Source: a virus
Lineage: Duplodnaviria; Caudoviricetes
IMG/VR virus record: IMGVR_UViG_3300047313_000057
Location: 54,245 to 118,244 of that record
Reading direction: 5' to 3' (one strand)
DNA length: 64,000 bases
Part shown: piece after piece, positions 314-20,285 of the stretch
How the letters are laid out: every line of letters begins with the position of its first letter
How positions within the stretch are numbered: position 1 is the stretch's first letter
Notes under the pieces: model-generated
What the model was told of the DNA's origin: nothing
Databases searched by the model: none
The model's input: only the letters and a program-made list of their open reading frames with translations
Translations under genes and position numbers: made by a program

Positions 314-549
314 CTGTTCCACCATTTGCGGCGCTCCGAATAGTCCTTCGGCGGACGCGAATACTTGAGTTTGGGCTTCTTGAACACCGGCCCATCGCGC
401 TCTGGCGGATAAACGATGATGCAGCCGTCCGGGATGGTCGGCCAACCGGTGAGGGTCGGCCAACCGGTGACGGTTGCCCCGGTGTATTGCTGACAACTGC
501 AGCATGTCGCCGTGCACGAACAATGCACCGGCATGGGCCACGCAATCAT
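310..549 (-). CDS. small Cys-rich hypothetical protein (79 aa)
   Basis: ATGA coupling at both ends; CSCTATCCSC and TGWPT x2. Confidence 0.55.
   Translation of the reverse strand: MIAWPMPVHCSCTATCCSCQQYTGATVTGWPTLTGWPTIPDGCIIVYPPERDGPVFKKPKLKYSRPPKDYSERRKWWNR
436..470. repeat. 18-bp-period tandem repeat (ggtcggccaaccggtga x2)
   Basis: seen directly; encodes TGWPTL/TGWPTI. Confidence 0.9.
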
Positions 550-1496
550 GACGCCCTCGCCAGCGCGATGGTATCCGTGCGCAGGTTCATCTTCACCTCG
601 GCGAGCGCTCGCCCCAGGCAGTGCTGCGGGGTCAGCATCTCCTTGAACTTGGCGAACTGCGCCGCGTGGACGCCCTTGTAGCCCATGGCCCGGGTCATCA
701 CCGCGAGGTTCATGAAATGATCGAGGTCCTTGGCGAACTTGACGATCTGCGGCCATGGCGAATCGTCCGAGGCCGAATGCGGCTCGGCGACCACCGGCCG
801 GCCCAGGCACAGCGCGGTGTTGCACCGTGTCGATGAGATCAGCCCCATCTCGTCGTATTTGCGGATCTGCAGGATCACCCGCGCCTCGCGCATGATGCGG
901 TCGCGCGTCACCTGATCGGGGAATGTCGCCTCGACCCGGACCGCCTTCTCAGTGCCGATGAACCGCGCCAATGCTTTCAGGATCTTCAGCCGGCGCTTGG
1001 ACAGCGAGCCGAAGAACCCGAAGTCGAACTGCGGCTCGACGCCGTCGGGCGCGCGCACTAGGCTCGGCGCATAGCCGAGTTCGATGTAGGCCGCGGGCGC
1101 CCATTGATTGTACCAGTCGTGGACGTGGGCGCCCGGCACCAGATAGAGGATCGCCTCGGCAAACTCGGCGGCACGGGGGAATTCGGACTGCCGCTTGACC
1201 ATCTCGGCATCGCGCCCGTGGTTGAACCCCTTGGGCGTCGGTTCTTCGGTGGCGATGAACAGGAAGCGGGCCCCCTGTGCATGGGCGCGCCGCAGCACCT
1301 CGGTCGATCCCGGCGTGAAGCCCTCGACGATGACGTTGATGCCCGAATCCGGCATCAGGAAGCGGTCGTTCTTCGGCTCCCACACGACGTTGTGGCCCAG
1401 CGCCTTGAGCTGGTGGCCGACGATGCCCATCGGGTCTTCGAGGGAGCGCTGGCCTAACACGTTATGGTTGAAGAGATTGAATAGAAGTTGTGTCAT
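546..1496 (-). CDS. putative glycosyltransferase (GT-B, CgeB/Glyco_trans_1_2-like C-terminus), paralog A'
   Basis: start MTQLLFNLFNH via ATGA overlap; FDFGFFGSLSKRR...ARVILQIRK...STRCNTALCLGRPVVAE; full-length similarity to 9686-10600. Confidence 0.65.
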   Translation of the reverse strand: MTQLLFNLFNHNVLGQRSLEDPMGIVGHQLKALGHNVVWEPKNDRFLMPDSGINVIVEGFTPGSTEVLRRAHAQGARFLFIATEEPTPKGFNHGRDAEMVKRQSEFPRAAEFAEAILYLVPGAHVHDWYNQWAPAAYIELGYAPSLVRAPDGVEPQFDFGFFGSLSKRRLKILKALARFIGTEKAVRVEATFPDQVTRDRIMREARVILQIRKYDEMGLISSTRCNTALCLGRPVVAEPHSASDDSPWPQIVKFAKDLDHFMNLAVMTRAMGYKGVHAAQFAKFKEMLTPQHCLGRALAEVKMNLRTDTIALARAS

Positions 1497-2224
1497 CGCA
1501 CGATCATCCTCAGCGCCTGTTGCAGGCGCTCCTCGCGCGGCCATTCCTGCGCCGCGAGATCGCGCGAAAACGGCCCCTCCATGCCGTCCGTGCAGCTTGC
1601 CGCGCACCACCGCGCCCAGATCAGCAGGCGCGGCCGGCGCTGCGGGCGCGGCGCCATGTGGCATCCGTGCGGATCGATGAAGAACGTCGTGCCCGCAGGG
1701 CCCAAAACCGTCCGAGTCGGGCGCGCCGGGCGGTAGCCGTTGTAATTTTCGCCCCTGTCCTCGTCGCGATGTGACCCGATCTCGTAGAGATGCGCGCCGT
1801 CGTCGAACGATTCCACGTCCGTCCCGTACATGAATGCGACCAGCATGCGCGGGTTGTCGCGGTCGCGGTGCCAGTCGTGCGTATCGCGATAATGGTGCGG
1901 CGACGGCTGGGTGACGAAGGCGCTGATCGAGTAGAGCAGCGCCTCCTCGCCGAAATAATCCGCGGCGATGTCGTAGCTGCCGAGCGCCCAGGTCAGATAA
2001 TGGGGTGCGGCAAGGACCTCATCGCGATCAAGGCCCATCATCGGCCAGCCGGGGTTTCCCCACACCTCGTCCAGCCGGGCGCGTCGGCGGCCGGACCCGA
2101 AGGTATGGTTGTCGCTGCATGGCGCCTGCTTCAAATGGTGCAGAAGGGCTTCGAGCTTTCCGGCAGACAGCGGCTCTCCGACGGCGGCGCCGTCGCGGCG
2201 CAATTCTTCAGCGATATCGGTCAT
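1493..2224 (-). CDS. PhyH-like 2OG/Fe(II) dioxygenase, paralog P'
   Basis: WHRD (HxD), GPAGT..F.DPHGCH distal His, RPRLLIW; paralog of 5986-6765. Confidence 0.7.
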   Translation of the reverse strand: MTDIAEELRRDGAAVGEPLSAGKLEALLHHLKQAPCSDNHTFGSGRRRARLDEVWGNPGWPMMGLDRDEVLAAPHYLTWALGSYDIAADYFGEEALLYSISAFVTQPSPHHYRDTHDWHRDRDNPRMLVAFMYGTDVESFDDGAHLYEIGSHRDEDRGENYNGYRPARPTRTVLGPAGTTFFIDPHGCHMAPRPQRRPRLLIWARWCAASCTDGMEGPFSRDLAAQEWPREERLQQALRMIVR

Positions 2225-2829
2225 GTCGGATAATAAGCCGGCCAGAGCTCCAGATAGCGCGCATGATCGCTGTCGAAATGCCGGTGCTTGTTCGTTTCGA
2301 TGGCCTCCCGACCCTGATGCTGGATCCGGGCGTCCCGGCAGATCGCAACCGATCCGCCGGCTTCCCAGCAGCGCATCGAAAAATCGACATCGCCGTAGAA
2401 GCTGGCATAGGCCGGATCGAAGAAGCCGATCATGGCGATGGTCTTCCTCGACGTCATGCCCCAGCGGGCATAGGGCCGTATGCCGGCCCGGCAGCCATCG
2501 TCGCCGACGAAGAACTCGCCGATGAACGGCGGGGAATGCCGGTCGATGAACTCCATCATCGTCTCAAGGCAGCGGGTCGTCGGCTTGATTTCGTCGGACA
2601 GCCACGCGACGTGCGTGCTTTTCGAGCGGGTGTGGTCGAGCGCGAGCGCGATCGAGGCGGCGCTGCCGATGCGGTCGTCGTGCACGTTGGTCGCGCGCTT
2701 GACCTTGAACGAGGGCGAGGCGACGACGACGTCGAGGGTGATCGAACTGCAGGCCCGCAGGTCGTCCACGAGAATCTGCGTGAGCCGGCGCGAGCGCGCC
2801 GCGGGAATGATGACGGAACAGAGATTCAT
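2221..2829 (-). CDS. GT2-like (GT-A fold) glycosyltransferase
   Basis: SVIIP N-terminus, WLSDE, IGFFDPAYASFYGDVDFSMR. Confidence 0.7.
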   Translation of the reverse strand: MNLCSVIIPAARSRRLTQILVDDLRACSSITLDVVVASPSFKVKRATNVHDDRIGSAASIALALDHTRSKSTHVAWLSDEIKPTTRCLETMMEFIDRHSPPFIGEFFVGDDGCRAGIRPYARWGMTSRKTIAMIGFFDPAYASFYGDVDFSMRCWEAGGSVAICRDARIQHQGREAIETNKHRHFDSDHARYLELWPAYYPT

Positions 2830-3596
2830 CTGATCGCCATGATGGCCGAAGGATCGTGGTTTTGCCGGATCGTGCAGTCATCCGTCACGAGATGCGCATG
2901 AGCGCCGACGCTGACGTTGACGTTGAAGTCCTGCAAGACCGCCGTGTTCCAGCCCCCGCCATAGCGCGGTGCCCAGCGCGCGACGAAGCGGTGATAGTCC
3001 GCCGGCTCATAGAGTTTCGACTTGCGCACGACGTCGACCAGGCGGCCGTCGGTGTCCTTCGACAGGAAGATCGCCGGCCGGCTGGAAAAGGCACAGAAGC
3101 CGCCGAGGTTCCACACGCGCATGCCGAGATCGCAATCACTGAAGCCCTGCCGGTAATCGCCGTCGAACCAGCCGGCAGACACCGCCCCGGCGCGCCGCAT
3201 CATCGGGAAGTTCGGATAGTACAGGCCGAAGCAGGTCCCGGCCCAGTCGCTGCCGTCATGGCGGTCGTAGCGCAGGCCCATCACCAGCGGCGTGGGACGG
3301 GCGTTTTCGAGTGCCTCGAATTCCGGGATGAGCCATTCGTCCCAGCCATCGCAGAACTCGAAATCGTCGGCCAGCGCAATGACGAAATCGCCCTTTGTCC
3401 ATTGCAGTGCGGCATGCTGAGCCGCAGCCGCCCCGCGCGGTTCGTGTTCCAGCACCCATACGGCGGACGGGGGCGGACGCTCTGGGCTGACGACGACGAT
3501 CTCATGGCTGCAGCGCGTGCCTCGTTCAATGCTGGCAACGCAGCGGGCGAGGTCATGCGGGAAGATCGACGGGATGATGATCGAGACTACGGGCAT
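2826..3596 (-). CDS. GT2-like glycosyltransferase
   Basis: VSIIIPS, EIVVV, GDFVIALADD, GWFDGDYRQGFSDCDLGMRVW. Confidence 0.8.
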   Translation of the reverse strand: MPVVSIIIPSIFPHDLARCVASIERGTRCSHEIVVVSPERPPPSAVWVLEHEPRGAAAAQHAALQWTKGDFVIALADDFEFCDGWDEWLIPEFEALENARPTPLVMGLRYDRHDGSDWAGTCFGLYYPNFPMMRRAGAVSAGWFDGDYRQGFSDCDLGMRVWNLGGFCAFSSRPAIFLSKDTDGRLVDVVRKSKLYEPADYHRFVARWAPRYGGGWNTAVLQDFNVNVSVGAHAHLVTDDCTIRQNHDPSAIMAIR

Positions 3597-4491
3597 TCAA
3601 GTCTTGAACCTTTGCCAGGACATCCCGCCAGAACACGCGCGGATGATGGTGCTCTGTCACATGGGCGTGGAAGCGTCCGGCCATATCCCTGAGCGCATCG
3701 TCATTGCCGCGAGCCCAGGCGATCTTCTGCAGGGCGTCTCCGGGATCCTGGTATTGAAGGTAGAGGTCGTCCGGAAACCACTTGGCTGTGCAGGCGTTGG
3801 CCTTTTCGAGGCAGCATGCTCCAGCCCAGCCTGCTTCGATCACGCGCCCTTTGACGTGCATGCCCCGGCCGGTACCCATGATAGGATGATTGGGGACGAT
3901 TTTGCAGCCACCGAGAAAGCGTCCCATGTCGTGGGGCGACATCCCGTGACGGCGATCAAGCTGCGCATGATCGATCAGCACGTGCACGAAGGCGATACGC
4001 TCCGCATGACCGCCGTCCTCTCCGGCCATGCCGAGAAATGTCGGCCTCGAATCCCAGGCCATCGGCACGAATAGTTCCGGGTCCGTCGGCGTCAACTTGA
4101 CGATCCCGTTGGTAAAGCCGGCGAGCGGCGTGTTGAGGTTCCCATCGATGCTGACCTGTGCCGAAAAACATTGCTCCCTGTCGTACCGGATCAGCCAGTC
4201 CCACCAGTAATCATCGCCCGCATCGCAGCAGATGAGAATCGTTGGGGCCAGATCATGGATTCTTTTGAGGATGTCCACGGACGGAACTGGACGATTGTAA
4301 TACTGCTCCACCGCTCCGACATAGATGACGATCTCCGGCTTGAGCAACTCGACCAGCGCGACAATCTCGCTCTGACGGTCGTGCGAATAGATGTCGTATC
4401 GTTCGACATGGCAGACGTTGCCGGTGCAGATCCACGAGCGCCAGAAATTCTCGCAGTTCATCGAATGGCTGACGAGGAACAGGGCTTGCAT
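3553..4491 (-). CDS. putative glycosyltransferase (CgeB-like), paralog B'
   Basis: CKIVPNH..GTGRGMHVKGRVIEAGWAGACCLE...HHPRVFW; paralog of 5102-5989. Confidence 0.65.
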   Translation of the reverse strand: MQALFLVSHSMNCENFWRSWICTGNVCHVERYDIYSHDRQSEIVALVELLKPEIVIYVGAVEQYYNRPVPSVDILKRIHDLAPTILICCDAGDDYWWDWLIRYDREQCFSAQVSIDGNLNTPLAGFTNGIVKLTPTDPELFVPMAWDSRPTFLGMAGEDGGHAERIAFVHVLIDHAQLDRRHGMSPHDMGRFLGGCKIVPNHPIMGTGRGMHVKGRVIEAGWAGACCLEKANACTAKWFPDDLYLQYQDPGDALQKIAWARGNDDALRDMAGRFHAHVTEHHHPRVFWRDVLAKVQDLNARSLDHHPVDLPA

Positions 4492-4505: not shown

Positions 4506-5105
4506 TCATCTCAATAATGTCGCCAGCAGTCCGGTGTCACGCATATTCCTTGCAAGATCGGCGTGGGAATATCCTGGTATCAATGTCGGCTCGACACCAA
4601 GACGGCGCGCCATGTGAATGTCGAGTTCCGTACCTGGGCCGTCGCTGACGAACGCCTTGATGTTGGAGGTGCAGCCACCCTTGAAGAGGGGAAGAAGATC
4701 GTCAATCGTGAATGGATCGTGTGGCGCCGGCGCCACACGATGGTGCCATTTCGGATCAATATCATCTGTCGCCGTGCCGGTGGTCACCGGTGATATTGCG
4801 ATGATCTCTTCGACTCCAGCAAGTTGTCCATACAGCAGTGCCGCATAGGCGCCGGAAGACACACCTGCCGTCTTGACGCGGTAGCGTCGCGCAAGATCGC
4901 GCAGATAATCGGCGACGGCCTGCCGATCACCGATGCCTTTGATGCCGTGCTGATACCAGCGCGTCGCCGAATCTCTGAACAGAACATGAGGCAACTGGAG
5001 AGCGCTCAACAACCGGCCGAATTGAAACACATGCTGCGTGCCTGCAGCAAATGCAGCAATACATGTCGAATTCCCGGCGTGAAGTCTCTCTTCAAAATCG
5101 ATCAT
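4506..5105 (-). CDS. alpha/beta-hydrolase-fold esterase or acyltransferase
   Basis: GVSSG nucleophile elbow (GxSxG) followed by AYAALLYG; C-terminal D and H. Confidence 0.65.
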   Translation of the reverse strand: MIDFEERLHAGNSTCIAAFAAGTQHVFQFGRLLSALQLPHVLFRDSATRWYQHGIKGIGDRQAVADYLRDLARRYRVKTAGVSSGAYAALLYGQLAGVEEIIAISPVTTGTATDDIDPKWHHRVAPAPHDPFTIDDLLPLFKGGCTSNIKAFVSDGPGTELDIHMARRLGVEPTLIPGYSHADLARNMRDTGLLATLLR

Positions 5106-5989
5106 AGAACACAGGCTTTCGTCAGAACCTTGTCCCAGAATACACGCGGATGATGCTCCCGTTCGACCTTGTCATGAAATCGCGCGGCGACATCATCGCC
5201 CGCTTGCGTCCTGATGATGGCCTCCACTTCGTCGATCGTTTGGGCCGCAAAATATTCATCAGGACGGAACCAGTCCCCCATCAGAGATGGACCGTATTCG
5301 ATGAGTGCGGCTCCGGCAAAGCCACACTCGACAACGCGACCCTTGACATGGGATCGCGTGCCGGTTCCCGTCAACGTGTGGTTAAACACGAAACGGGAAT
5401 TGCCGATGATCGCGGCCATGTCCGCATAGGACCGGCTCGGGGACATCTGATAGAACTGCAGGAGGCCGCGTTCGCACAACCGCGTAATCACATGGCTTCT
5501 ATCACCGCCGCCGATGTTGCCGACGAAACTGAACGGAATCTCCCGCTCATGCCATGGCCGCGGAGAAAACACGCGCGTATCCACAGGTGTCAGCAACGTC
5601 ATGCCTTCGGAAAACGCCGAGAGCGGCGCGTCATGGCCGCCGTCGATGCTCACCTGAACGGTGAAGCATGCCTGATCGTGATAAGTCTGCAATTGCGGCC
5701 ACCACGGCGGATCGGCGGCATCGTCGCACATATGGATGAACGGTGTCACATCGCGGATTCTTCGCAGAATATCGACATTCGGCACTGGGCGGTTATGAGA
5801 TTGTTCGCAGGCGCCGATGAAGACCGCAAAATCCGGCGCTACGCGGCGCACTTCTTCAACAAGTTCACCATGACGGTCGTGCGGTCTGTCGTCGTACTGA
5901 ATGAGATGCACATCATGCCCTGCGGCCTGCAGCGACATCCATTTGTTTTCACAGTCGGACGAAAAGGTATGAAACACAACCGCTTTCAT
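5102..5989 (-). CDS. putative glycosyltransferase (CgeB-like), paralog B
   Basis: FSFVG..R..., SRFVFNH..GTGTRSHVKGRVVECGFAGAALIE...HHPRVFW. Confidence 0.65.
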   Translation of the reverse strand: MKAVVFHTFSSDCENKWMSLQAAGHDVHLIQYDDRPHDRHGELVEEVRRVAPDFAVFIGACEQSHNRPVPNVDILRRIRDVTPFIHMCDDAADPPWWPQLQTYHDQACFTVQVSIDGGHDAPLSAFSEGMTLLTPVDTRVFSPRPWHEREIPFSFVGNIGGGDRSHVITRLCERGLLQFYQMSPSRSYADMAAIIGNSRFVFNHTLTGTGTRSHVKGRVVECGFAGAALIEYGPSLMGDWFRPDEYFAAQTIDEVEAIIRTQAGDDVAARFHDKVEREHHPRVFWDKVLTKACVL

Positions 5990-6765
5990 GATACGACAAG
6001 CCTGATTGCTTCCTGGATCTCCGGATCGGCCGGATAGCGGTCACCGATCAGCGCCTTTGGTACAGGACGCAGATCATCCCATCCGTAGGCCGCAGGAGGA
6101 TCACTGACGCCGTAACGTGCCCATATGAACAGCCGCGGTCCACTGCGCGGGCGCTGTCCCATATGAACGCCGAAGGGTTGTTCGACAAACAGTGTTCCGG
6201 CAGGCCCTTTGATCGTGATGATTGCTTCCGGCGGTGGATTGCCATTGGCGGGACTATGAGATGAACCGCGCTGATACAAATGGAAGCCGTCATTCAAGAC
6301 ATCGGTGCCGAACATGAACAAGCCGAGTTGCTTGCGATCGTCTTCGTCGCGGTGCCAGTCATGGGTTTCGATATAATGCCCGCTTCCCGGCTGGGTCCAG
6401 AAGCAGTGCAACGAATAAAGGCGCGGAAACTCGCCATCAAAATACTGTTTGACCAGCGGAAATACGCTGATCGCGCATTCCAGCCAATGCGGAGCCCCGA
6501 CAACCGTCTCCATCGTCGGGGCGAACGCGGGCCATTCCCCATCGGACCGGGCTTGGCGCATCGTCTTGCTGCCCGCCGGAAATTCCGGCACTTTCGATCT
6601 GGAGGCGACATGCGCACGCCAGACCGGGCGCTCGTCCATGTAGGCGATCATTTCGGCGAGTTCCTGCTCACCGAATCGGCTCGGCGCAATAACGACGCCA
6701 TCGCGCCGTAAATCGTCAAGCAAAGCCGTCCATTCAATCAACGGCATTTTCATCTGCATCATCAC
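5986..6765 (-). CDS. PhyH-like 2OG/Fe(II) dioxygenase, paralog P
   Basis: HDWHRDEDD, GPAGTLFVEQPFGVH, PRLFIWARY. Confidence 0.7.
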   Translation of the reverse strand: MMMQMKMPLIEWTALLDDLRRDGVVIAPSRFGEQELAEMIAYMDERPVWRAHVASRSKVPEFPAGSKTMRQARSDGEWPAFAPTMETVVGAPHWLECAISVFPLVKQYFDGEFPRLYSLHCFWTQPGSGHYIETHDWHRDEDDRKQLGLFMFGTDVLNDGFHLYQRGSSHSPANGNPPPEAIITIKGPAGTLFVEQPFGVHMGQRPRSGPRLFIWARYGVSDPPAAYGWDDLRPVPKALIGDRYPADPEIQEAIRLVVS

Positions 6766-6839: not shown

Positions 6840-6881
6840 TTCACATGCCTGTCACAGAGGCATGCCGATATGAGACGGCTC

Positions 6882-7214
6882 TCATATCGTCTTAAAACTT
6901 CCAGACGGCTGGAAAGAACCATTCTGAAACAAAACGATAATCTGCGTTCCAGTCAAGTTGCCAGATGGCGTGTTCTGCTTCTGAGTAACCAGCGGATCCC
7001 CAGCGCTATCCACTTCGATTACGGTTGGCGCATATGACGGTGTCACTTCTGTACCGGCTTGCCAGCCTCGTGATACCGCGGCGGCATCTGCGGTTAATAT
7101 AAAGGCACTGCATACAATATCCCCGACGCGAACGGAATTGGGATTTACGGAACACTGAACGTCTGCGGATGTAGAGTCTACACCCGTCACCGTAGCCATG
7201 TAAAACAGTTTCAT
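6882..7214 (-). CDS. hypothetical protein (lower-GC insert)
   Basis: 110 aa ORF with GGAG RBS; composition differs from flanks. Confidence 0.6.
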   Translation of the reverse strand: MKLFYMATVTGVDSTSADVQCSVNPNSVRVGDIVCSAFILTADAAAVSRGWQAGTEVTPSYAPTVIEVDSAGDPLVTQKQNTPSGNLTGTQIIVLFQNGSFQPSGSFKTI

Positions 7215-7235
7215 TGATCTATCTCCGTCTCTAGC

Positions 7236-10600: not shown

Positions 10601-10640
10601 TCCCCTTCCTCCTATGGTCCACAGGATATGGATCATAGGA

Positions 10641-14086: not shown

Positions 14087-14611
14087 TCAATACAGCGCCG
14101 CATCTTCCACAAGAATCGCCGGTCCGTTGTTGTCAAGCGCACAGGCGTAATAGTCGTGGATGTCATCCACAGTTTTCAAACGATGCACGGCGACGGTTTT
14201 CAGCATCAGTCCGAACGCCTCGGAAAAATCCCCGAGATGCTGCGGTCCCGGGTCGAGCGGCTGGTCGGTCGCGACCGCCGTCCTGATGATGACCTTCGGC
14301 CGGTAGCCGCCGCCGGAATAGAGCGGCAGCTTGTCGAGGTGGTTGACGAGCTGGTTCGTCGCGCACAACAGGAAATTCCAGCGCGGATAGATGCAGACCG
14401 GAATGAGGCCCTCCAGCGACAGGCCGATGGCCATGCCCATCTGCATGTCCTCGGCAACCGGCAATTCGATCTTGCGTTCGGGGGGAACGGCCTGGAGAGT
14501 CTTGAACATGGCCGTGCCGGGATAGGCGACGGTCTGGCCGATGAACACGGTGCGGGGGTCCGCGGCGAGCTTTCCCATCGCCGCGCACAGGGCGTCGAAG
14601 TAGGCCGTCAT
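14087..14611 (-). CDS. TPP-enzyme E1 beta / transketolase pyrimidine-binding domain (short form)
   Basis: IELPVAEDMQMGMAIGLSLEG, NQLVNH, GPQH. Confidence 0.85.
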   Translation of the reverse strand: MTAYFDALCAAMGKLAADPRTVFIGQTVAYPGTAMFKTLQAVPPERKIELPVAEDMQMGMAIGLSLEGLIPVCIYPRWNFLLCATNQLVNHLDKLPLYSGGGYRPKVIIRTAVATDQPLDPGPQHLGDFSEAFGLMLKTVAVHRLKTVDDIHDYYACALDNNGPAILVEDAALY

Positions 14612-14784
14612 TTATTCCTGCTTCTACGGCGGTCTTCGTCCGTCCAGCCTTGCCGCCAAGCAGCCCACATTTCATCGAGCTTGAAGGGCGGACATGCTGT
14701 TATCGTCATGTCCATGGCACGCGCTGCCGCGCCTTCCTGTTTGAGGCTATGCTCTATGTCGGTAGCAAGCAGCAACTTTAACAT
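14608..14784 (-). CDS. 58-aa hypothetical protein with RMF-like CP...W..GW tail
   Basis: below the ORF-track cutoff; MLKLLLATD...ACPPFKLDEMWAAWRQGWTDEDRRRSRNK; TGATG and ATGA overlaps. Confidence 0.55.
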   Translation of the reverse strand: MLKLLLATDIEHSLKQEGAAARAMDMTITACPPFKLDEMWAAWRQGWTDEDRRRSRNK

Positions 14785-15386
14785 CAGAAATTCACCCTTA
14801 CGCCTGCCCCACTATGGGGCCATGGCAGCTTGTACTGGAAATACTCCACATAGATGTCGCTGTTCGGATTCCTGTCCTCACCCCAAGTCTCTTTCGTCGG
14901 CGTGCACACCGATAGCCCGTTGTCCGCAATCACGAACCGCATCGGCAGGCCGTGGCCGTGGGCATAGCGCACGCATTCCCAGTACATGCCGGAGGCCCCC
15001 GTCATGTCACCGACGAAGCACCAGACCTTTTCAGTGCCCCCGCGCCGCTTCACCGCCATGGCGAGACCGGTCCCGATCGGCAGGATGCCGCCGACGATGG
15101 CCGAGGAAAGGATCCTGTAGTCGGGATAGCACAAGGTAATCGAATGGCCGGCGAGGATGTCCCGCCGCAGCCGTTCGGGGGAAACGCCCTTGAGCAGGCA
15201 CTCATAATGCGAACGCCATTGCACCAGGACCCAATCCTGCGGCTGCACACCCTCGAAGATGCGGATCAGGTCCTCTTCGCAACCGCCGGCCAGATGCACC
15301 GGGGCACGGATTTTGCCCGCATTGAAGTCGTCGGCGATCTGGCGCTCGAAGGCGCGGAGGCTGTCGGGCGTATGGCCGGTCTTCAC
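14784..15386 (-). CDS. TPP-enzyme E1 alpha (short form)
   Basis: PVHLAGGCE, WRSHY, SAIVGG, GDM...DN TPP-binding motif variant; GTGA overlap. Confidence 0.85.
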   Translation of the reverse strand: MKTGHTPDSLRAFERQIADDFNAGKIRAPVHLAGGCEEDLIRIFEGVQPQDWVLVQWRSHYECLLKGVSPERLRRDILAGHSITLCYPDYRILSSAIVGGILPIGTGLAMAVKRRGGTEKVWCFVGDMTGASGMYWECVRYAHGHGLPMRFVIADNGLSVCTPTKETWGEDRNPNSDIYVEYFQYKLPWPHSGAGVRVNF

Positions 15387-15895
15387 GCCGCACCGTTGCC
15401 GTTGAACACATCCCAGTTCCCGAACTCCGCCACCAGCTCCGCCGCAAAGCAATCCAGCTTGAAGTCATGCCTTCCGCCGTCCACCGCCGCGAGTTCGTTC
15501 TTGGCCGCATTGCGCACGCCGTTGATCGAGTGGGTGAGTTTCAACAGCTTGTCCTGTTCGGCGCCCCCCGCGCGCGCCTTGCTCTCGTTCTCCCAGATGA
15601 AACGATTGCTGAGCATGATCACGCAGATCGCCCGCACTTCCTTGGCGCCGATATGCGCCCCTTTTACCGCAAGGCCATCGAGGATCATGTCGACGTCATG
15701 CATGATGTCGGCCATCTCCGCCATGTAGGCGTCCTTCTTCTCGGAAATGAAGATGGCCTTCTGCTGGACGATGGTGAGCCTGTCGATGAGGTCGGAGAGG
15801 GTCGGGAGGTAGCGGCGCTGCGGCACTGCAGGCCCAGGGAATGACTGCACCAATTGACCTGAGTCGATGAGAGACTGCATCTGCATCGCATCCAT
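15383..15895 (-). CDS. helical hypothetical protein (DUF6165-like)
   Basis: LSDLIDRLTIVQQK...NRFIWENE...NGVRNAAKN. Confidence 0.55.
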   Translation of the reverse strand: MDAMQMQSLIDSGQLVQSFPGPAVPQRRYLPTLSDLIDRLTIVQQKAIFISEKKDAYMAEMADIMHDVDMILDGLAVKGAHIGAKEVRAICVIMLSNRFIWENESKARAGGAEQDKLLKLTHSINGVRNAAKNELAAVDGGRHDFKLDCFAAELVAEFGNWDVFNGNGAA

Positions 15896-16236
15896 CAAAA
15901 TGTCGTCCTGTTTGCCGGATTCCCGGTCAATGTGAACTGCCCATCTTCGACTGAGACCGGCGGACTGCCCGGCGTCTCGACGCTGTAATACACGATGCCC
16001 GCCGCCGCCCCGCGGCTGTCCCACTGTCCCGACCAACTGCCATCGGCATTCTGCGTCATCGCCACGATGACCGACTGCGCCGTATTGTCGGACGCCCGCG
16101 TATAGCTGATGTTGACCTGCGGCGTTCCGGTCGGCTGCTGCGCGTGGCTGAAGGCATCGAAGAAGTTCGAGGTGATCTCGATCGTCGCGCCGCGCGAGAA
16201 CACCGGCCACACCTTCTGCAATTGCGGCGTCGCCAC
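15895..16236 (-). CDS. putative small beta-sandwich virion protein
   Basis: alternating beta pattern; position in the structural operon. Confidence 0.55.
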   Translation of the reverse strand: MATPQLQKVWPVFSRGATIEITSNFFDAFSHAQQPTGTPQVNISYTRASDNTAQSVIVAMTQNADGSWSGQWDSRGAAAGIVYYSVETPGSPPVSVEDGQFTLTGNPANRTTF

Positions 16237-17727
16237 CTAACTGACCTCGGTGTCCGAGCCCGCGCCGCCGACCGCGGAAACCGACGCGGTCGCGCTCGCC
16301 GTCGAGCCTGAGAGCATCTGCCGGACGGCGGAAATCGAGGTGATCGCGGTCACGATCGAATTACTGAGCATCGCGGTGACCCGGACGATGGCATAGACGA
16401 CATTGGCCGCGGGCAGCGGCGGCGGCGGGATGATGGCGTAGGCGACAAGCGGCGGCTGCACGACCTGCTGCCACCAGGGCGCCCGGTCGTCGTAGTTGAA
16501 TCTCCAGAACCGCGGCAGAACCTGCCCCGGCTGGCCGAAAAACTTCGCCTGCGTTGCCGTGAGGACGGCGGCATGGCTGGGTTGTACCGGCCATGTCCAG
16601 ACGCTGGCGTCGTTCTGCGTGAAGTTGGGCCGGAACGGCGGCACCTGCCCCGGCTGGCCGTAGAAGCGCGCCTGGACGAAGATCGTCCGCATCGGCGGCG
16701 GCAACCACGTCCAGGCCGCGTCCTCCGAATAGAACGAAGGACGCGGATGGACGAGCGGGGCGCTGACCTGAAGGAGGGACCGCGAGGACGGCAGCGGGCG
16801 CGTCCACGCTGCGGGATCGTCCTGCGTCGCGTTCCAGCGGAACGGATACCCTTGACCGGGCTGGCCATAGAACCGCGCCTGCGTCGTGGTGACGGCGGCC
16901 GAATAACTCGGCAGCGGCGCGCCCAGCCATGACGGCAGCTCGTCATAGGCCCGCTGGTATTGAATCTGATACGCGAACGGCTGCTGCTGCTGCGTCAACC
17001 CAAAAAGGATTGCAAACGGGATGTTCTGGTCTTCGGGAACAATCGACCATGGCGCCGTATCTTCATACTTGGTGCCAAACTTGACGATATGCTGGCCCGC
17101 GGCGAGCACGGCGCCGAACAAATGCCGTGGTGCCGGACGAAATCCCCAGATCGCCGGATCGTCGACGATGTAGCCCCAGACATAAAGCGAGCTGGCTGGA
17201 ATGACCGGGTTCGTCGTCAGCAGATTGCTGTTGAGTGTCTCCGACGGCGGCTGCCAGTTCGCGGCATCGTCAGAGAGCTGATACGGCCACCACCGTTTGC
17301 TCGGGGCCTGCCCGCCCGCGCCATAGAAGCGCTGCTGGGTCAGGTTCGCGATGATCCACGAATCGAGGTTCTCAGTCGGCGGCTGCCATGACGGTGGATC
17401 GTCGATCGCCGCGAGCAGCGGCCGATTCCAGTTCTTGGCCGGGGCCTGCCCCGGCTGGCCGAAGAACTTGGCCTGCGTCGTGGTGAGCGCGATCGCACCG
17501 TCGCGATGGCTGATCGTGCCGGGGCCTGTCCAATCGCTGGCGTCGTTGTAGAGTTCGTAGGGCCACCACCGCTTGGTGGGCGCCTGCCCGGGCTGGCCGA
17601 AGAACTTGGCTTGCGTCCTGGTAAGCTGGATCGCCCCCGAGTTCATCCATTCCAGCTGCGGCCCCGTCCATTCCGCCAGATCGACGGGGCGCGGTGCCCA
17701 GAATGGCGCGCGGAGGACTTGGGCCAC
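16237..17727 (-). CDS. Pro/Trp/Gln-rich internal-repeat protein (putative fibre scaffold/ruler)
   Basis: six QA(K/R)F(F/Y)GQPGQ-like units and about eleven acidic-x3-W-x2-P-like units. Confidence 0.7.
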   Translation of the reverse strand: MAQVLRAPFWAPRPVDLAEWTGPQLEWMNSGAIQLTRTQAKFFGQPGQAPTKRWWPYELYNDASDWTGPGTISHRDGAIALTTTQAKFFGQPGQAPAKNWNRPLLAAIDDPPSWQPPTENLDSWIIANLTQQRFYGAGGQAPSKRWWPYQLSDDAANWQPPSETLNSNLLTTNPVIPASSLYVWGYIVDDPAIWGFRPAPRHLFGAVLAAGQHIVKFGTKYEDTAPWSIVPEDQNIPFAILFGLTQQQQPFAYQIQYQRAYDELPSWLGAPLPSYSAAVTTTQARFYGQPGQGYPFRWNATQDDPAAWTRPLPSSRSLLQVSAPLVHPRPSFYSEDAAWTWLPPPMRTIFVQARFYGQPGQVPPFRPNFTQNDASVWTWPVQPSHAAVLTATQAKFFGQPGQVLPRFWRFNYDDRAPWWQQVVQPPLVAYAIIPPPPLPAANVVYAIVRVTAMLSNSIVTAITSISAVRQMLSGSTASATASVSAVGGAGSDTEVS

Positions 17728-17730
17728 GGT

Positions 17731-18009: not shown

Positions 18010-18236
18010 CGCACGGTGTCGATCGACTGCTCGCGCGCGCGGTTTTTTTGCTTGGTGTTGCGCGGATTCCCGTCGATATGATCCGCTACCGCCACGACGC
18101 CCATCTCGACCGCGCGGCGATATTCGGTGCCGCAGCCTTCCCACGGCGGCGCAAGGAACACCTTGCAATATTCGCGGTGGAAGGCGCGGGCGAGATCGTC
18201 GATATACTTTTCGCGCTCGGCGTTGGCGCGCATCAT
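18006..18236 (-). CDS. hypothetical protein
   Basis: ATGA coupling on both sides. Confidence 0.5.
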   Translation of the reverse strand: MMRANAEREKYIDDLARAFHREYCKVFLAPPWEGCGTEYRRAVEMGVVAVADHIDGNPRNTKQKNRAREQSIDTVR

Positions 18237-18751
18237 AATGCCTCGTAGATCAAATGACTGCCGACGGCCCCCATCGTGCCGCCGGTGAACGCGGACAATG
18301 ATACCTCGCCGTTCGTGGCGGCAGTATTCCCGTACAGCATCGGACACTCCTCTAAACGGTTCGCGCGCCAGAAGTACACGCCGCCAAAGGCGTTGAGCGA
18401 ACAGTTGAGCAGGTGGCCACCGAGCGAGCGCACCGGCGCCGACGTAACAAAAACATTCCCTGAACCTGTGGCGGTTCCGAGCGTCGTGAAGTTCGGGTTC
18501 AAGAAGTTGTCGCTGCCGGTGCCGTAGCTCTGGGCGCCGACGCCGACCGTCGAATCGTAGGACAGGATGATGAACATCGGCGATGACGACGACGCCGCCT
18601 GTCCGTTGATGCTGATCTCCCAGACATAGACTTGCTGAGTCGTGTTGCTGCCCTTGAGGGCGTGCAGATAGGTGCCGTTCACGAGCGCAGCGCCGTCGGC
18701 ATAGGCCGCCATGGCGGCGGTCGTCGGAATGTTGGCAATCCTGCGTGCCAT
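18233..18751 (-). CDS. putative beta-rich virion fibre/appendage subunit
   Basis: GAGGAG RBS; Ser/Thr/Gly-rich 172 aa with few charged residues. Confidence 0.6.
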   Translation of the reverse strand: MARRIANIPTTAAMAAYADGAALVNGTYLHALKGSNTTQQVYVWEISINGQAASSSSPMFIILSYDSTVGVGAQSYGTGSDNFLNPNFTTLGTATGSGNVFVTSAPVRSLGGHLLNCSLNAFGGVYFWRANRLEECPMLYGNTAATNGEVSLSAFTGGTMGAVGSHLIYEAL

Positions 18752-18769
18752 GGTTCAACTCCTCAAGAA

Positions 18770-19126
18770 TCAAGGAACGATGATCCTGCCCTTTGCCGCG
18801 GCGTCCATGTGCTCGTCGACGATCCTCTGCCACGGCCGGCATTCGCCGGTAAGCACGCGCGCCGTCTCGCACGCGTCGCACACGAAGCCGTCGCATTTCG
18901 GACAGTAGCCGCGGGACCGCGTGCGATCGGGGTTGATGACGACGATGCGCGGGCAGTGCCGGCATTTCTTGGTGACGAATTGCAGCCTCTTGCTCGCCGG
19001 CTGCGCAATGACCGGCGCCGGGCCGCGATAGCCCGCAGCCGCGGCCTCCGCGCGGGAAATGCCGGGGGATTCCCGGTTGTCGATTTCGAGGTAGCCCTCG
19101 AACGAGGATTGCAGAAGGCGCGTCAT
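18770..19126 (-). CDS. Cys-rich Zn-binding protein (possible assembly chaperone)
   Basis: CRHC...CPKC...CDAC...C. Confidence 0.6.
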   Translation of the reverse strand: MTRLLQSSFEGYLEIDNRESPGISRAEAAAAGYRGPAPVIAQPASKRLQFVTKKCRHCPRIVVINPDRTRSRGYCPKCDGFVCDACETARVLTGECRPWQRIVDEHMDAAAKGRIIVP

Positions 19127-19881
19127 ATCATGAGAAGCGGCGTCGATCCCTGCAGCGTATCGGCACCGCCGGCCGGATTCTCGATGGCATCGCCGGTCAG
19201 CAACCAGCAGTGCGTATTGGTTCCGAACGCGACGGTCGCGTTGCTCTGCGAGGAGGCGAACAGCCGGTATTCGCTGGCGATGGAGCAGGCGTTGGAAGCG
19301 CCGCCGTTGGCGGCGGCGTCGATCAACGTGAAGTTCGTTCCCTGCGTTTCCGTGATGGAGTTGCCGCACAGAAAGAAGCCCAGCACCATGGCCGGATTGT
19401 TCGTCGCGGCGCCGCTCACTGTCACTGCGGAATCGCTGGACGACGTCGTGTTGCTGGTCTGGGCCGGACAAGCCACATTCGACGTCCAGACCGGGACGTT
19501 GGAACTGTCATAATTGACGCCGAAGGCGCTGATGCAGGCATCATCGATCGTCGCATTCGCGGTGACTTTGAAAACCGCGCCTGTCAGCGCCGTCGTCGCA
19601 GAGGCCGACCACACCTCCAACGACAGGCCGCCTTCGTTCGCGATCGAACCGGGATTATCCACGTAAAGCGACGACCGCCGGGTGAAGGTGCCGACGGTGC
19701 CGGTGCCGCCGGTCTTGCTGATGCCCGAAACGATTGCGTGCGTATTCCCCGCGACCACCTCCAGCGTCACGGCGATGACGATCAGGTCGTTGGCATTCGC
19801 CGTTGTCAGTGTCACCGAGGCGTTATTGGCCGAACTCCAGTTACTGACGACGGCATGGCCGTCAAGCGACAGCGTCGCCAT
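19123..19881 (-). CDS. Ser/Thr-rich beta protein, putative fibre tip/surface protein
   Basis: SVTLTTANANDLIVIAV...; two similar halves; very S/T/A-rich. Confidence 0.6.
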   Translation of the reverse strand: MATLSLDGHAVVSNWSSANNASVTLTTANANDLIVIAVTLEVVAGNTHAIVSGISKTGGTGTVGTFTRRSSLYVDNPGSIANEGGLSLEVWSASATTALTGAVFKVTANATIDDACISAFGVNYDSSNVPVWTSNVACPAQTSNTTSSSDSAVTVSGAATNNPAMVLGFFLCGNSITETQGTNFTLIDAAANGGASNACSIASEYRLFASSQSNATVAFGTNTHCWLLTGDAIENPAGGADTLQGSTPLLMI

Positions 19882-19886
19882 TTACG

Positions 19887-20285
19887 TCACACATTGCAGT
19901 TAGCCATCGTGTTCCAGGCGGCGGCCACCGCATTGTTGATGTCCGAATCCGTCGCGCCGGTCGATGCCGGCGTCGCGGTGGTGACGGCCGCGGCGACCGT
20001 GGCGTCCGTCGTCGCCGTGGTGAAATTGGCGGCGTTCTGCGTTACCACGTCGTTGGCAAGGATTGGATTTGATGCCGCCGCCCAGGCAAAATCCGCGATG
20101 TAGACATTCGGGTTGTTCAAGACCTGAAAGGCGTAGGCTTTTCTGGTCACATGGTTGGCGATGTTCTGCCCTTCGGCCCCGATCGAATAGACCGCATAGT
20201 TGAATACCGATGCCTGGACGCGCTGGACGAACACGGCATCGATGGCGATCCGCGACATGTCGTAGAGCGTTGCCGTGACGGTCAT
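19887..20285 (-). CDS. putative virion protein
   Basis: GAGGA RBS; ATDSDINNAVAAAWN C-terminus, Thr/Ala-rich. Confidence 0.55.
   Translation of the reverse strand: MTVTATLYDMSRIAIDAVFVQRVQASVFNYAVYSIGAEGQNIANHVTRKAYAFQVLNNPNVYIADFAWAAASNPILANDVVTQNAANFTTATTDATVAAAVTTATPASTGATDSDINNAVAAAWNTMANCNV

Follow-up and report, generated by a model that had tools for sequence, protein, structure and literature searches.

The conversion modules known to us are all membrane-protein based and independently transcribed, and we know of no DNA glycan that approaches the complexity of a branched deoxy-sugar structure built by six transferases. Glycans on mycobacteriophage virions are made by phage-encoded transferases (Freeman et al. 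2023, as cited in PMC12619734), a precedent for the virion glycosylation considered below, and structural and terminase genes can neighbour sugar clusters that act on DNA (bioRxiv 10.1101/2023.12.21.572611).

The window analyzed here is a stretch of 64,000 nucleotides from the complete 118 kb genome of an uncultured tailed phage, in which approximately 20 kb separate head from neck genes; this interval holds a tightly coupled sugar cluster and six or seven ORFs that could not be classified. We read the phage as a temperate E217/Pam3-like myovirus, and the stretch as an accessory ‘glyco-island’ in its late virion operon. All genes from 20786 down to 546 lie on the minus strand. The island is flanked by a DUF4054 head adaptor, which adjoins capsid genes in relatives too, and by neck/sheath genes beyond window base 1; downstream, at genome positions below the window, lie the neck terminator, a DUF3383 sheath, an E217 gp32-like tube and the baseplate. 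Overlaps of 4 nt (ATGA/GTGA) were found at 11 island junctions and gaps of -1 to 21 nt at seven more, in agreement with the order and coupling first described; larger gaps separate F252 from F172 (371 nt) and E1 alpha from E1 beta (172 nt), or precede the HAD (215 nt) and PhyH2 (about 116 nt) genes. Promoter-like and terminator-like sites showed no excess over shuffled expectation across the island. Given this, the coupling and the position between adaptor and neck/sheath genes, late tail-gene transcription must cross the island, and the proposed placement of the sugar genes within the late virion operon was borne out, the cluster lying more exactly between head and neck/tail modules. A tyrosine integrase, encoded 48 kb away from the island, is consistent with the earlier description of the phage as temperate. 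The upstream part of the island comprises:

20298..20786, minus strand: DUF4054 head-tail adaptor, the upstream border, probable start ATG 20732 (PF13262, E 2e-10; phrog_302 virion structural protein, E 1.5e-23)
19887..20285, minus strand: F132, 132 aa with a Thr/Ala-rich C-terminal third, no Pfam/PHROG family, absent from related loci
19123..19881, minus strand: F252, Ser/Thr/Asn-rich all-beta protein of a small viral family (8 homologues, 34-52% identity)
18233..18751, minus strand: F172, Gly/Ser/Thr/Asn-rich, no family, unique to this genome
17731..18009, minus strand: small Cys-x-x-Cys ... Cys-x-x-Cys ORF from translation, uncertain gene of ~92 aa, its ATG 18009 overlapping the previous stop by 4 nt
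16237..17727, minus strand: F496, six repeat units of T-Q-A-K-F-F-G-Q-P-G-Q type (motif matches) followed by a Ser/Thr/Ala tail
15895..16236, minus strand: F113, small beta-rich protein, homologues at 34% in L086 and at 42% in L105, where it immediately precedes the terminator gene

The earlier note had described these ORFs as Ser/Thr-rich fibre genes. Only F252, F172 and F113 are clearly Ser/Thr-rich (19-25%), and no family was found for any of the ‘fibre’ ORFs; the 496-aa ORF is instead a Trp/Pro/Gln repeat protein apart from its tail, with motif matches at residues 38, 84, 130, 282, 351 and 392 (n=6) and no relatives in INPHARED or IMG/VR. The AF2 model of F252 (pLDDT 79.7) consists of two beta-sandwiches that resemble TNF/C1q-like phage receptor-binding heads only weakly (Z no higher than 5.3), and its relatives on other viral contigs have no adjacent sugar genes. 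Co-occurrence of the fibre module and the glyco cluster had been set beforehand as a check: F132, F252, F172 and F496 were found in 0 of the 34 related loci bearing sugar or transferase genes; F113 alone among the ‘fibre’ genes has relatives in related phages, in two of these loci. The suggestion that fibre subunits are the glycan acceptors was therefore not supported. The other proposed acceptor was a Thr-rich insert in the cement protein:

26598..27602, minus strand: cement protein in which residues ~150-310 form a Gly/Thr/Ser-rich insert of two repeats, a candidate acceptor only (PF23982/PF22758 cover residues 3-159)

The insert itself is real; it is absent from 169 cultured-phage homologues and present in all of the best 80 cement relatives. 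Its link to the transferases did not hold, however, since the insert occurs clade-wide irrespective of transferases and 29 of the 34 loci spanning cement to terminator genes lack any transferase. Likewise, transferase-positive and transferase-negative phages do not differ in a Ser/Thr tail on their capsid, cement, adaptor, neck or terminator proteins.

The sugar-pathway genes are encoded next, beginning with a conserved core:

15383..15895, minus strand: h170, helical DUF4254-like protein, first gene of the core (at least 881 homologues, 60-80% identical)
14784..15386, minus strand: minimal TPP-dependent E1 alpha subunit, start GTG 15386 within the start overlap (PF00676, E 9e-11; TIGR03182, E 5e-19, far under the equivalog cut-off)
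14087..14611, minus strand: minimal E1 beta, 174 aa, pyrimidine-binding domain only (PF02779, E 2e-7; NF006667, E 6e-12)
12887..14074, minus strand: ColD-type PMP-dependent NDP-4-keto-6-deoxyhexose 3-dehydratase (PDB 2GMS, E 3e-63; PF01041, E 4e-50)
12669..12890, minus strand: p73, small protein without family, 4-nt overlaps at both ends
11746..12672, minus strand: extended SDR of the epimerase/reductase type (PF01370, E 6e-32)
11345..11749, minus strand: p134, Cys-rich with one C-terminal hydrophobic helix, the cluster's only hydrophobic anchor
10671..11129, minus strand: HAD phosphatase of PNKP type (PF25109, E 8e-27, 94.6 bits)
8150..9664, minus strand: B12-binding radical-SAM enzyme (PF02310 + PF04055; nearest NCBIfam HpnJ, under cut-off)
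7236..8153, minus strand: sugar O-methyltransferase within a lower-GC cassette (TIGR04371, 66.8 bits, cut-off 44)
6882..7214, minus strand: p110, small beta-type protein rich in Ser/Thr, also within this cassette

Family or PDB matches uphold the earlier calls for the E1 alpha/beta pair (matched as E1_dh + Transket_pyr), the ColD-like enzyme, the SDR, the B12 radical-SAM enzyme and the O-methyltransferase, and the phage indeed carries several transferases together with genes of its own for a tailoring route that yields a rare deoxy-sugar. The ColD-like enzyme aligned over its full length to 2GMS (residues 33-385 against 6-384), with a His at the position of the ColD His that replaces the PLP-lysine, where entry 3B8X reads Asn. 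The SDR is probably a 4-keto reductase or epimerase, and is 50-58% identical to SDRs beside radical-SAM and DegT-like genes in many bacterial genomes; the radical-SAM enzyme, with relatives (41-62%) in 9 viral and 45 cellular loci, is probably a C-methyltransferase or rearranging enzyme. h170, of whose homologues one carries PF14063, always precedes E1 alpha, a synteny kept in relatives. The O-methyltransferase cassette differs in GC content (0.53 versus 0.62-0.65), and the 18-nt junction before 8153 is repeated before 6765 with one mismatch. The HAD phosphatase does belong to its family but is of the polynucleotide-kinase-phosphatase type; its role in sugar synthesis is doubtful because it has no counterpart in any related island and is specific to this genome.

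The oxygenases and transferases are distributed through the downstream part of the cluster:

9686..10636, minus strand: GTn2, second GTn-family copy (52% identical to GTn1; no Pfam match)
5986..6765, minus strand: PhyH2, Fe(II)/2-oxoglutarate oxygenase of the PhyH subfamily (AF2 pLDDT 88)
5102..5989, minus strand: GT1_2b, PF13524 (CgeB-like) glycosyltransferase (E 8e-7)
4506..5105, minus strand: esterase-like protein (G-V-S-S-G motif only; homologues in L086, L091 and L115)
3553..4491, minus strand: GT1_2a, PF13524 glycosyltransferase (E 2e-9)
2826..3596, minus strand: GT2-family glycosyltransferase (PF00535, E 4e-5, 24.1 bits, cut-off 23.3)
2221..2829, minus strand: distant GT2-like paralogue (27% identical to GT2 over 86 residues; homologue in L091)
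1493..2224, minus strand: PhyH1, second PhyH-fold oxygenase, directly upstream of GTn1 (PF05721, E 0.001)
546..1496, minus strand: GTn1, the island's anchor gene, true start ATG 1496 in an ATGA overlap with PhyH1 (orthologues of 47-66% identity in 34 viral loci)

The count of six GT-like genes was confirmed, and these form three paralogous pairs: two PF13524 proteins (40% identical; one to four copies per related island), GT2 with its distant relative, and two GTn proteins. The GTn family has at least 580 members, none with a Pfam domain, and 52 invariant columns in an alignment of 23 sequences. It is GT-B-like, and a putative transferase, by predicted fold only: the Atlas model of GTn2 gave TM 0.75-0.83 to GT1/PF13524/GT4 clusters, while profile comparison with the PF13524 pair was not significant. 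Transferase relatives were not detectable in 50,697 cultured phage records, proven virion glycosylators included. For the ‘esterase’, the G-x-S-x-G motif is present and is the sole basis of the call, no family being matched.

Both dioxygenases are, as proposed, of PhyH fold and form a paralogous pair (35% identical). PhyH2 relatives often adjoin GTn genes, an arrangement formally resembling the dioxygenase-GT pair expected if the transferases glycosylated phage DNA before packaging, whether on a hypermodified base as in T4/RB69 or as in the 5hmC-glycan clusters of Pyle et al. The proximity of structural genes would also suit such a role; in a distant phage (G003) a DNA methylase and a ThyA-like gene of 367 aa lie ~10 kb upstream of the sugar cluster, and three GTn1-only relatives encode ThyA-like proteins. 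However, the complete genome contains no ThyA-like, C5-methylase or Tet_JBP gene, i.e. no hydroxylated-base route, ThyA-like and Tet_JBP genes are likewise missing from two further complete genomes with GTn1, and a ThyA-like gene occurs in one of five relatives that lack GTn; ThyA and GTn are therefore not associated. The best PDB matches of the PhyH2 model (SnoN, FtmOx1, AsqJ, GriE and AviO1, E ~1e-9) are small-molecule oxygenases, with no TET, JBP or AlkB among the matches listed, so that by model the oxygenases appear closest to sugar-tailoring and small-molecule enzymes such as SnoN and AviO1. Since a six-transferase, branched-deoxy-sugar glycan would also far exceed known DNA glycans, we consider DNA glycosylation unlikely and give it little weight.

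Orthologues of GTn1 were identified in 34 IMG/VR loci, usually in the order neck163-GTn1-neck124, and in several lineages they lie -4 to 13 nt from the neck genes (L087/L089, -4/0 nt; L097, -4 nt; L096, -1 nt). The sugar core (h170-E1a-E1b-ColD-SDR-rSAM) directly follows GTn1 in L085, L091, L093, L096, L098 and L109, the adaptor in L084, L095, L099 and G005, and portal-MuF in L006, L008 and L012, and lies within the head module in every one of these docked cases. The head-neck junction of relatives also takes other large co-oriented accessory proteins, one of which (891 aa, L186) carries a virion insert module, fitting a site where virion surface elaborations accumulate; in L159/L163 an opposite-strand island occupies it. 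The junction is thus a general cargo site as well.

A general cargo site would also accommodate an island making a free or lipid-linked glycoconjugate (e.g. an oligosaccharide resembling orthosomycins, or a molecule with signalling or inhibitory activity), or glycosylating a non-structural or host cytoplasmic protein, the virion operon being merely tolerated. The E1 pair, PhyH-type oxygenases, O-methyltransferase and many transferases parallel oligosaccharide-antibiotic tailoring, in enzyme set as well as in the AviO1 fold match, and the junction accepts unrelated cargo. No aglycone, carrier or export genes were recognised, however, and many phages keep GTn1 between neck genes with no sugar pathway nearby, which is hard to reconcile with a metabolite pathway. 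This explanation is conceivable but improbable.

A more substantial, if still doubtful, alternative is that the island alters a glycan of the host envelope, which could be O-antigen, capsule, EPS or the sugar of a surface glycoprotein (flagellin or pilin, for instance). Its soluble transferases would use lipid-linked or protein acceptors of the host, and export of the product would fall to the host's own flippases and ligases. ColD is a classical O-antigen (colitose) enzyme; rSAM, SDR and DegT-like genes occur together in dozens of cellular genomes, and in a Colwellia cluster Pfam also finds PF13524 transferases, an E1 alpha/beta pair and a HAD gene. The phage has an integrase, one relative is classed as a provirus, and the island is dispensable within the clade. 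Hydropathy of 170 gene models revealed no polytopic membrane protein in the cluster or the rest of the genome, confirming the reported absence of Wzx/Wzy/Gtr-type machinery; apart from p134, all cluster proteins are soluble. This absence argues less against O-antigen conversion than had been thought, because most O-antigen transferases are themselves soluble and rely on host carriers and exporters, as is typical of Und-PP-linked and other lipid-linked polysaccharide synthesis. Nevertheless, hydropathy showed nothing in the genome that would serve as an initiating phosphoglycosyltransferase, flippase, polymerase, ligase or Gtr-type protein, which sets the island apart from the known conversion modules. 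It lies inside the head-neck operon, far from the integrase and with no excess of promoter-like sites, and in several phages overlapping stop and start codons leave no room for a promoter or terminator of its own.

Virion glycosylation, with a candidate virion protein as acceptor, remains our best reading, one to which we give an even chance. The substrate would be a host NDP-4-keto-6-deoxyhexose, most likely GDP-4-keto-6-deoxymannose; the phage lacks its own nucleotidyltransferase. The ColD-type dehydratase would remove the 3-hydroxyl and the E1 pair add a two-carbon branch, after which the SDR may reduce or epimerise the product, the B12 radical-SAM enzyme C-methylate or rearrange it, the O-methyltransferase methylate it and the PhyH-fold enzymes oxidise it. 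A surface protein of the virion under assembly could then receive, in the cytoplasm and late in infection, a short hetero-oligosaccharide made by the six soluble transferase-like proteins; GTn1, which sits between two neck genes clade-wide, may start the glycan on protein, with the other transferases as extenders. We infer the substrate, sugar structure and acceptor, whereas gene families, order and coupling, head-neck recurrence and the absence of membrane and DNA-hydroxylation genes were observed directly. Against virion glycosylation counts the likeness of the sugar core to bacterial clusters (45-58% identity to genes of clusters also holding PF13524 transferases), which suggests a cell-surface origin. 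The solubility of the transferases and the cargo-site nature of the junction also weigh against it, as do the restriction of the ‘fibre’ genes to this genome, the failure of the cement insert and of virion-protein C-termini to track the transferases, the lack of transferase relatives among the cultured phage records, and the assignment of GTn by predicted fold only.

The sugar cluster is thus a newly recognised accessory island recurring in a clade of 70-130 kb uncultured myoviruses, anchored by an unannotated GT-B-like family that is often translationally coupled to two neck genes. If the island acted on the host envelope, the receptor landscape would be changed during lysogeny or infection. 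Related phages keep the module at the same spot, and it therefore probably sugar-coats the virus particle.

The phage record comprises 118,244 bp with direct terminal repeats and is rated complete; the window is its final 64 kb (54245-118244), and almost all genes of the region lie on the minus strand. Read 5' to 3' on that strand, a probable terminase (609 aa, without a family match) is followed by the portal (Phage_portal_3), Mu-F, a Nudix/AdoMetDC fusion and a DDAH-like gene, and then by DUF2213, a cement protein, a DUF2184-type capsid protein and the DUF4054 adaptor. Past window base 1 the same strand carries a neck terminator (PF23961), a DUF3383 sheath and an E217 gp32-like tube and, further on, E217 gp41-like and Pam3 gp18-like baseplate parts, Baseplate_J and DUF2612; with this neck and tail gene set the phage is therefore an E217/Pam3-type myovirus. 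The cluster of sugar and transferase genes (the island, window 546-20285, minus strand) is placed exactly between the head module and the neck/tail module, and a tyrosine integrase lies about 48 kb away. No near-identical DNA was found among 50,697 phage records. The capsid protein is 39-52% identical to counterparts in Klebsiella, Aeromonas, Pseudomonas, Acetobacter and Burkholderia phages, and the host is probably Gram-negative, judged from the capsid relatives that infect Klebsiella, Aeromonas and Pseudomonas. Features of the window outside the island are as follows.

Window 29810-32757, minus strand: Nudix/AdoMet-decarboxylase-like fusion and DDAH-like gene, in the head module
Window 43347-44102, minus strand: papain-family cysteine protease, adjoining a small-terminase-like HTH gene
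Window 45005-45847, minus strand: outer-membrane beta-barrel-like protein, weak likeness
Window 56315-58399, minus strand: HNH-helicase fusion

The genes of the island are tightly packed: at eleven junctions they overlap by 4 nt, at seven the gap is -1 to 21 nt, and at four it is larger. The largest break, 371 nt at window 18752-19122 between the open reading frames F252 and F172, holds no convincing minus-strand ORF. Promoter-like sites numbered four against 5.2 expected from shuffling, for a scored pattern from which the host promoter type may differ, and terminator-like sites showed no excess over the shuffled expectation. At window 6762-8153, a cassette of lower GC content (an O-methyltransferase and p110, 110 aa) is flanked by two copies of an 18-nt gene junction, one before 8153 and the other before 6765, that differ by one mismatch; this duplication suggests a recent insertion between the radical-SAM and PhyH genes.

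Family searches bore out the gene families that the earlier note had read in the island. Its pathway enzymes include an E1_dh/Transket_pyr pair, a protein of DegT fold, an extended SDR, a radical-SAM enzyme with a B12-binding domain and an O-methyltransferase, besides one PhyH match; the transferases with a family match are two of PF13524 and one GT2. The note's count of six GT-like genes is accounted for by paralogous pairs, of which an all-against-all comparison returned four: GTn1/GTn2 (52%), PhyH1/PhyH2 (35%), the PF13524 pair GT1_2a/GT1_2b (40%) and GT2/GT2-like (27% over 86 residues). The HAD protein is present, of the PNKP-phosphatase type, and has no counterpart in any related island, while the proposed esterase shows its motif and nothing beyond it. 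The O-methyltransferase matched the NCBIfam model 'putative sugar O-methyltransferase' above that model's cut-off. By hydropathy, the membrane content of the cluster is limited to one single-helix protein. PDB sequence searches with GTn1, PhyH2, GT2-like, the esterase-like protein, the DUF4254-like helical protein h170 and the cement insert returned no match. The PhyH2 model (11-sequence alignment, pLDDT 88) matched SnoN, FtmOx1, AsqJ, GriE and AviO1 at E of about 1e-9, so that on the predicted fold its neighbours among the matches listed are small-molecule and sugar oxygenases, not nucleic-acid dioxygenases.

Within the core (h170, E1 alpha, E1 beta, the ColD-like protein, SDR and the radical-SAM enzyme), the ColD-like protein is the DegT-fold one, whose nearest NCBIfam family is RfbH. 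Among solved structures it aligned over its full length with ColD (2GMS, E 3.1e-63, residues 33-385 against 6-384), and the second-best match was the E1 dehydrase 3BCX (E 1e-25). A His occupies the position of the Schiff-base Lys of aminotransferases ('...fwsHqlsaveGG' aligned to ColD '...fysHhiatmeGG'); in the ColD entry 3B8X the aligned position reads Asn. The TPP enzyme is split into an alpha subunit (PF00676/PF02775, PP-binding) and a beta subunit (PF02779, Pyr-binding). ColD is the 3-dehydratase of the colitose pathway, and branched 3,6-dideoxyhexoses are exemplified by yersiniose and by AviB1/AviB2-type two-carbon branching. The island resembles these pathways in that a ColD-type dehydratase with His adjoins a TPP pair and an SDR, a gene set whose logic would be 3-deoxygenation, then C-branching, then reduction. 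It differs from the colitose and AviB1/AviB2 pathways in its minimal TPP pair (about 200 + 174 aa), which scores far under the pyruvate-dehydrogenase (PDH) equivalog cut-offs, and in having a B12 radical-SAM enzyme and the DUF4254-like protein as fixed partners, for neither of which do we know of a role in sugar chemistry. That the E1 pair acts on an NDP-4-keto-sugar in the manner of AviB1/B2 or YerE we infer only from its place next to the ColD-like gene, an arrangement that viral and cellular clusters conserve. The phage encodes no sugar-activating nucleotidyltransferase, so the starting material must be a host NDP-sugar, for which GDP-4-keto-6-deoxymannose, the substrate of ColD, would be the obvious candidate.

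Relatives of the radical-SAM enzyme, 43-51% identical, were found in 45 cellular genomes, including Nitrospira, deltaproteobacterial MAGs, Verrucomicrobia, Pelagibacter and Colwellia. In 23-24 of these 45 loci the neighbouring genes include one for a DegT-fold protein (24-43% identical) and one for an SDR (in most cases 44-58%), and weaker matches to E1 alpha and E1 beta occur in 12 and 8 loci, respectively. In Colwellia, E1 alpha/beta of full size belong to the cluster, together with three SDRs, a HAD gene and two transferases of PF13524. Given this shared gene set, the origin of the phage core is a bacterial glycan pathway of wide distribution.

Among viruses, the radical-SAM query identified nine loci with 41-62% identical copies, in which h170, E1 alpha, E1 beta, the ColD-like gene and SDR co-occur partly or wholly, in several together with PF13524 or GT2. 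In the closest relative (capsid 81% identical) the core directly follows the adaptor, and the genes designated 'fibre' in the earlier note are absent; on three short contigs it is placed after portal and Mu-F. By sequence identity, h170 (window 15383-15895, minus strand) is the best-conserved gene of the core, with 60-80% identity among the listed relatives, at least 881 having been found, and it always lies 5' of E1 alpha. A DUF5131 protein (447 aa; window 46922-48265, minus strand) is encoded far from the island here, and related genome G001 carries a 36%-identical homologue (42860-43888) inside its sugar cluster, between h170 and E1 alpha. In five relatives the radical-SAM gene is interrupted in frame, within the radical-SAM cysteine motif, by an intein of about 280-320 residues; the window copy is uninterrupted. 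In four of the five, the intein starts C-L-x-G-(D/N) and ends V-K-N before a Cys, with HNH-like motifs. The intein-bearing genes are the following.

L091:17023-19437: radical-SAM gene with intein
L096:18591-20282: radical-SAM gene with intein
L098:8832-11243: radical-SAM gene with intein
L099:6693-9089: radical-SAM gene with intein
L012:952-3348: radical-SAM gene with intein

A query with the GTn family reached 34 viral loci, chiefly in records of 70-130 kb, where the usual order is portal, MuF, DUF2213, cement, MCP, p182, DUF4054, neck163, GTn1, neck124, terminator, sheath. In several phages GTn1 is the sole extra gene between neck163 and neck124, with junctions of -4/0 nt (loci L087/L089), -4 nt (L097) and -1 nt (L096). 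Other relatives carry the sugar core inserted directly after GTn1 or after the adaptor, and further cassettes (PF13524, GT2, PhyH, esterase-like, O-methyltransferase) are placed before neck163. Thus, the island is modular and accessory, anchored on GTn1 at the head-neck junction and organised around a new transferase-like family.

Neither Pfam nor NCBIfam profiles matched GTn1 or GTn2, and comparison by hhalign with the phage PF13524 family was not significant (probability 1.8%), so that a PF13524 kinship finds no support by profile. A protein atlas model of GTn2 (pTM 0.84) resembles clusters labelled GT family 1, PF13524 and GT4 at TM 0.75-0.83, a lead that comes without alignment statistics. 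The transferase identity is therefore read from the fold alone, and GTn1 and GTn2 are putative glycosyltransferases of the GT-B type. The family has at least 580 members in a collection of 5.8 billion proteins; the 120 relatives listed are 53-70% identical, and none carries a Pfam domain. An alignment of 23 sequences has 52 invariant columns, as an enzyme would show. Bacterial homologues are scarce (3/401 genomes of the one bacterial class sampled, at 25-30% identity), and their neighbours, CoA-transferase, TRAP-transporter and radical-SAM genes, were uninformative as a clue to function.

This setting in the virion operon, with six GT-like genes between adaptor and neck genes here and GTn1 coupled to neck genes in relatives, makes glycosylation of virion proteins by the island about an even prospect in our judgement. 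The earlier note was confirmed in what it observed, the gene families and their order, and only partly in its interpretation, as the acceptors it named were not upheld. Its fibre module did not co-occur with the glycosylation genes: F132, F252, F172 and F496 are found in 0/34 GTn loci and F113 in two, so the module is rejected as a general acceptor and is a possible one in this single phage. No Pfam or PHROG family was found for F132, F252, F172, the small Cys-rich ORF, F496 or F113. F252, whose relatives sit in unrelated contexts, is predicted to fold into two beta-sandwiches that only weakly resemble (Z up to 5.3) phage receptor-binding heads of the TNF/C1q type; Foldseek returned nothing at E <= 0.001 (best E 0.027), and the top VIA Z of 5.3 is within the tool's stated noise. 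F496 contains six units of the T-Q-A-K-F-F-G-Q-P-G-Q type and has no relatives in INPHARED or IMG/VR.

The second proposed acceptor, a Thr-rich insert in the cement protein, consists of two Gly/Thr/Ser-rich repeats of about 75 residues between the cement core and the last 25 residues. The insert is absent from 169 cultured-phage homologues, present in related genomes G001 and G005, and present in all of the 80 best IMG/VR cement relatives (all long-form). Of 34 loci covering cement to terminator, 29 lack any transferase and five have GTn; among the 80 best IMG/VR loci the insert characterises the clade and does not go with the island. Ser/Thr tail tags co-varying with transferases were likewise rejected, the C-terminal 25 residues of MCP, cement, p182, adaptor, neck163, neck124 and terminator being alike in phages with and without the transferases. 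A module of about 70 Gly/Thr-rich residues ending in G-T-x-G-G-x-G-T-Y, without a match in Pfam or PDB, recurs twice in cement, twice in sheath, and once each in the neck terminator and the Baseplate_J protein. An apparent copy in neck124 was a clustering artefact, BLAST showing no similarity. The proteins carrying the module are listed here, with L002 denoting DNA of the same genome below window base 1.

Window 26667-27155, minus strand: cement protein
L002:13904-15868, minus strand: sheath
L002:16425-17222, minus strand: neck terminator
L002:2862-4937, minus strand: Baseplate_J protein

With the motif on head, neck, tail and baseplate proteins, one recognition module is thus displayed over the entire particle, a suggestive sequence feature that keeps a virion acceptor attractive. 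In its fullest form, a GT-B-like enzyme encoded between two neck genes would start a glycan on this module, which the phage would have inserted into cement, sheath, neck terminator and baseplate proteins; interchangeable cassettes would lengthen the glycan with a phage-made branched, methylated 3,6-dideoxy-sugar, and the entire particle surface would be coated in a glycan foreign to the host. A clade of large uncultured myoviruses of Gram-negative hosts with such a modular, self-sufficient glyco-coat is a picture that we consider unlikely as a whole.

The capsid-to-neck junction is a cargo hot spot of the phage clade: in place of the sugar island, relatives carry small genes grouped in opposite-strand islands, a protein of 806 aa, or one of 891 aa with the cement-insert module.

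Capsid-to-neck cargo loci: L159, L163, L140:12385-14805, L186:9686-12361, L149

Arguments from position alone are weakened, as the junction also takes unrelated cargo. The bacterial ancestry of the enzymes and the temperate biology of the phage, one relative of which (the record behind L147) is classed as a provirus, both favour remodelling of the host envelope. Seroconverting temperate phages (GtrABC, O-acetylases, Wzy-type polymerases) encode polytopic membrane proteins near the attachment site and express them in the lysogen. The present phage resembles them as a temperate phage with sugar-modifying cargo, but by hydropathy none of the gene models in its whole genome reaches five hydrophobic segments, upholding the earlier note on the absence of Wzx/Wzy/Gtr-type membrane machinery, and the island is remote from the integrase. 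Together with the translational coupling to neck genes, these features make envelope remodelling a doubtful reading, if still a serious one.

DNA is another carrier of phage sugars, as in the glucosyl-5hmC of T4. RB69 and DLP3 carry arabinosyl-5hoC, and arabinosylated 5-hydroxycytosine starts from a ThyA homologue (PMC13326640); phage DNA-sugar clusters (5hmC glycans) exist in large numbers and can adjoin structural genes (bioRxiv 10.1101/2023.12.21.572611), a placement in favour of DNA as the target here. Such clusters share with the island GT-A and GT-B enzymes recruited from cell-envelope pathways and sugar-tailoring enzymes, sometimes near structural genes; what is absent here is a base-hydroxylating enzyme, either a ThyA homologue or a methylase with TET/JBP. 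PF00303 (ThyA-like), PF00145 (C5-methylase) and PF12851 (Tet_JBP) are missing from the complete genome, with controls detected, and neither ThyA-like nor Tet_JBP genes are present in two more complete genomes that carry GTn1. Of the relatives searched, 3/5 GTn1-positive ones (GTn1-only) and 1/5 GTn1-negative ones have a ThyA-like gene, and this genome has none, giving no association, and the PhyH-fold model matches enzymes of the SnoN/AviO1 type. DNA glycosylation by this island is accordingly highly improbable. G003, a distant phage, encodes a ThyA-like protein roughly 10 kb upstream of the sugar genes, and the DNA reading may thus hold for some carriers of the core.

L062:16718-17821: ThyA-like protein of G003
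L062:10872-13169: nearby DNA methylase with intein, G003

The ThyA-like proteins of G003, G006-G008 and G015 (336-372 aa) are longer than ordinary thymidylate synthases and are possibly products of base-modification genes, unlinked to the presence of GTn. Targets other than virion, envelope and DNA we regard as improbable.

Virion O-glycosylation is described for the mycobacteriophages Che8, Corndog and Myrna (Freeman et al. 2023 Cell Host Microbe, as related in PMC12619734). In that account, phage-encoded transferases accompanied by a methyltransferase act late on the particle, and the trait is accessory and dispensable with a proposed role as a glycan coat on the virion surface, all of which resembles the island. 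In contrast, the island transferases are unrelated in sequence (tblastn with GT1_2b and GTn2 against 50,697 phage records gave no match), no Ser/Thr C-terminal acceptor tails track the enzymes, the host is probably Gram-negative, and, judging from the genes, the phage adds a multi-step rare-sugar pathway and six transferases. The island is a variant of phage-encoded glycosylation, not categorically new, with far richer sugar chemistry than the mycobacteriophage systems. Giant viruses glycosylate autonomously, as in the capsid glycans of chloroviruses and the fibril sugars of mimivirus. They too encode nucleotide-sugar tailoring and cytoplasmic transferases for their own particle, independent of host secretory machinery, but they infect eukaryotes, belong to another realm and use different enzymes, and the phage encodes no sugar-activating nucleotidyltransferase.

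Whatever the target, the analysis defines an unannotated transferase-like family, at least 580 members strong and tied to phage neck genes, as well as a hot spot for cargo at the head-neck junction. It also defines a pathway of five to six genes, conserved and common to phages and many bacteria, that leads to a deoxy-sugar which is probably branched. If the virion is the acceptor, particle glycosylation would extend to phages of probably Gram-negative bacteria, through what would be, to our knowledge, the most elaborate sugar pathway of a tailed phage, with a logic comparable to that of giant viruses. With such a glycan coat, the adsorption and stability of the particle could change, as could the way in which host or animal immune systems recognise it.
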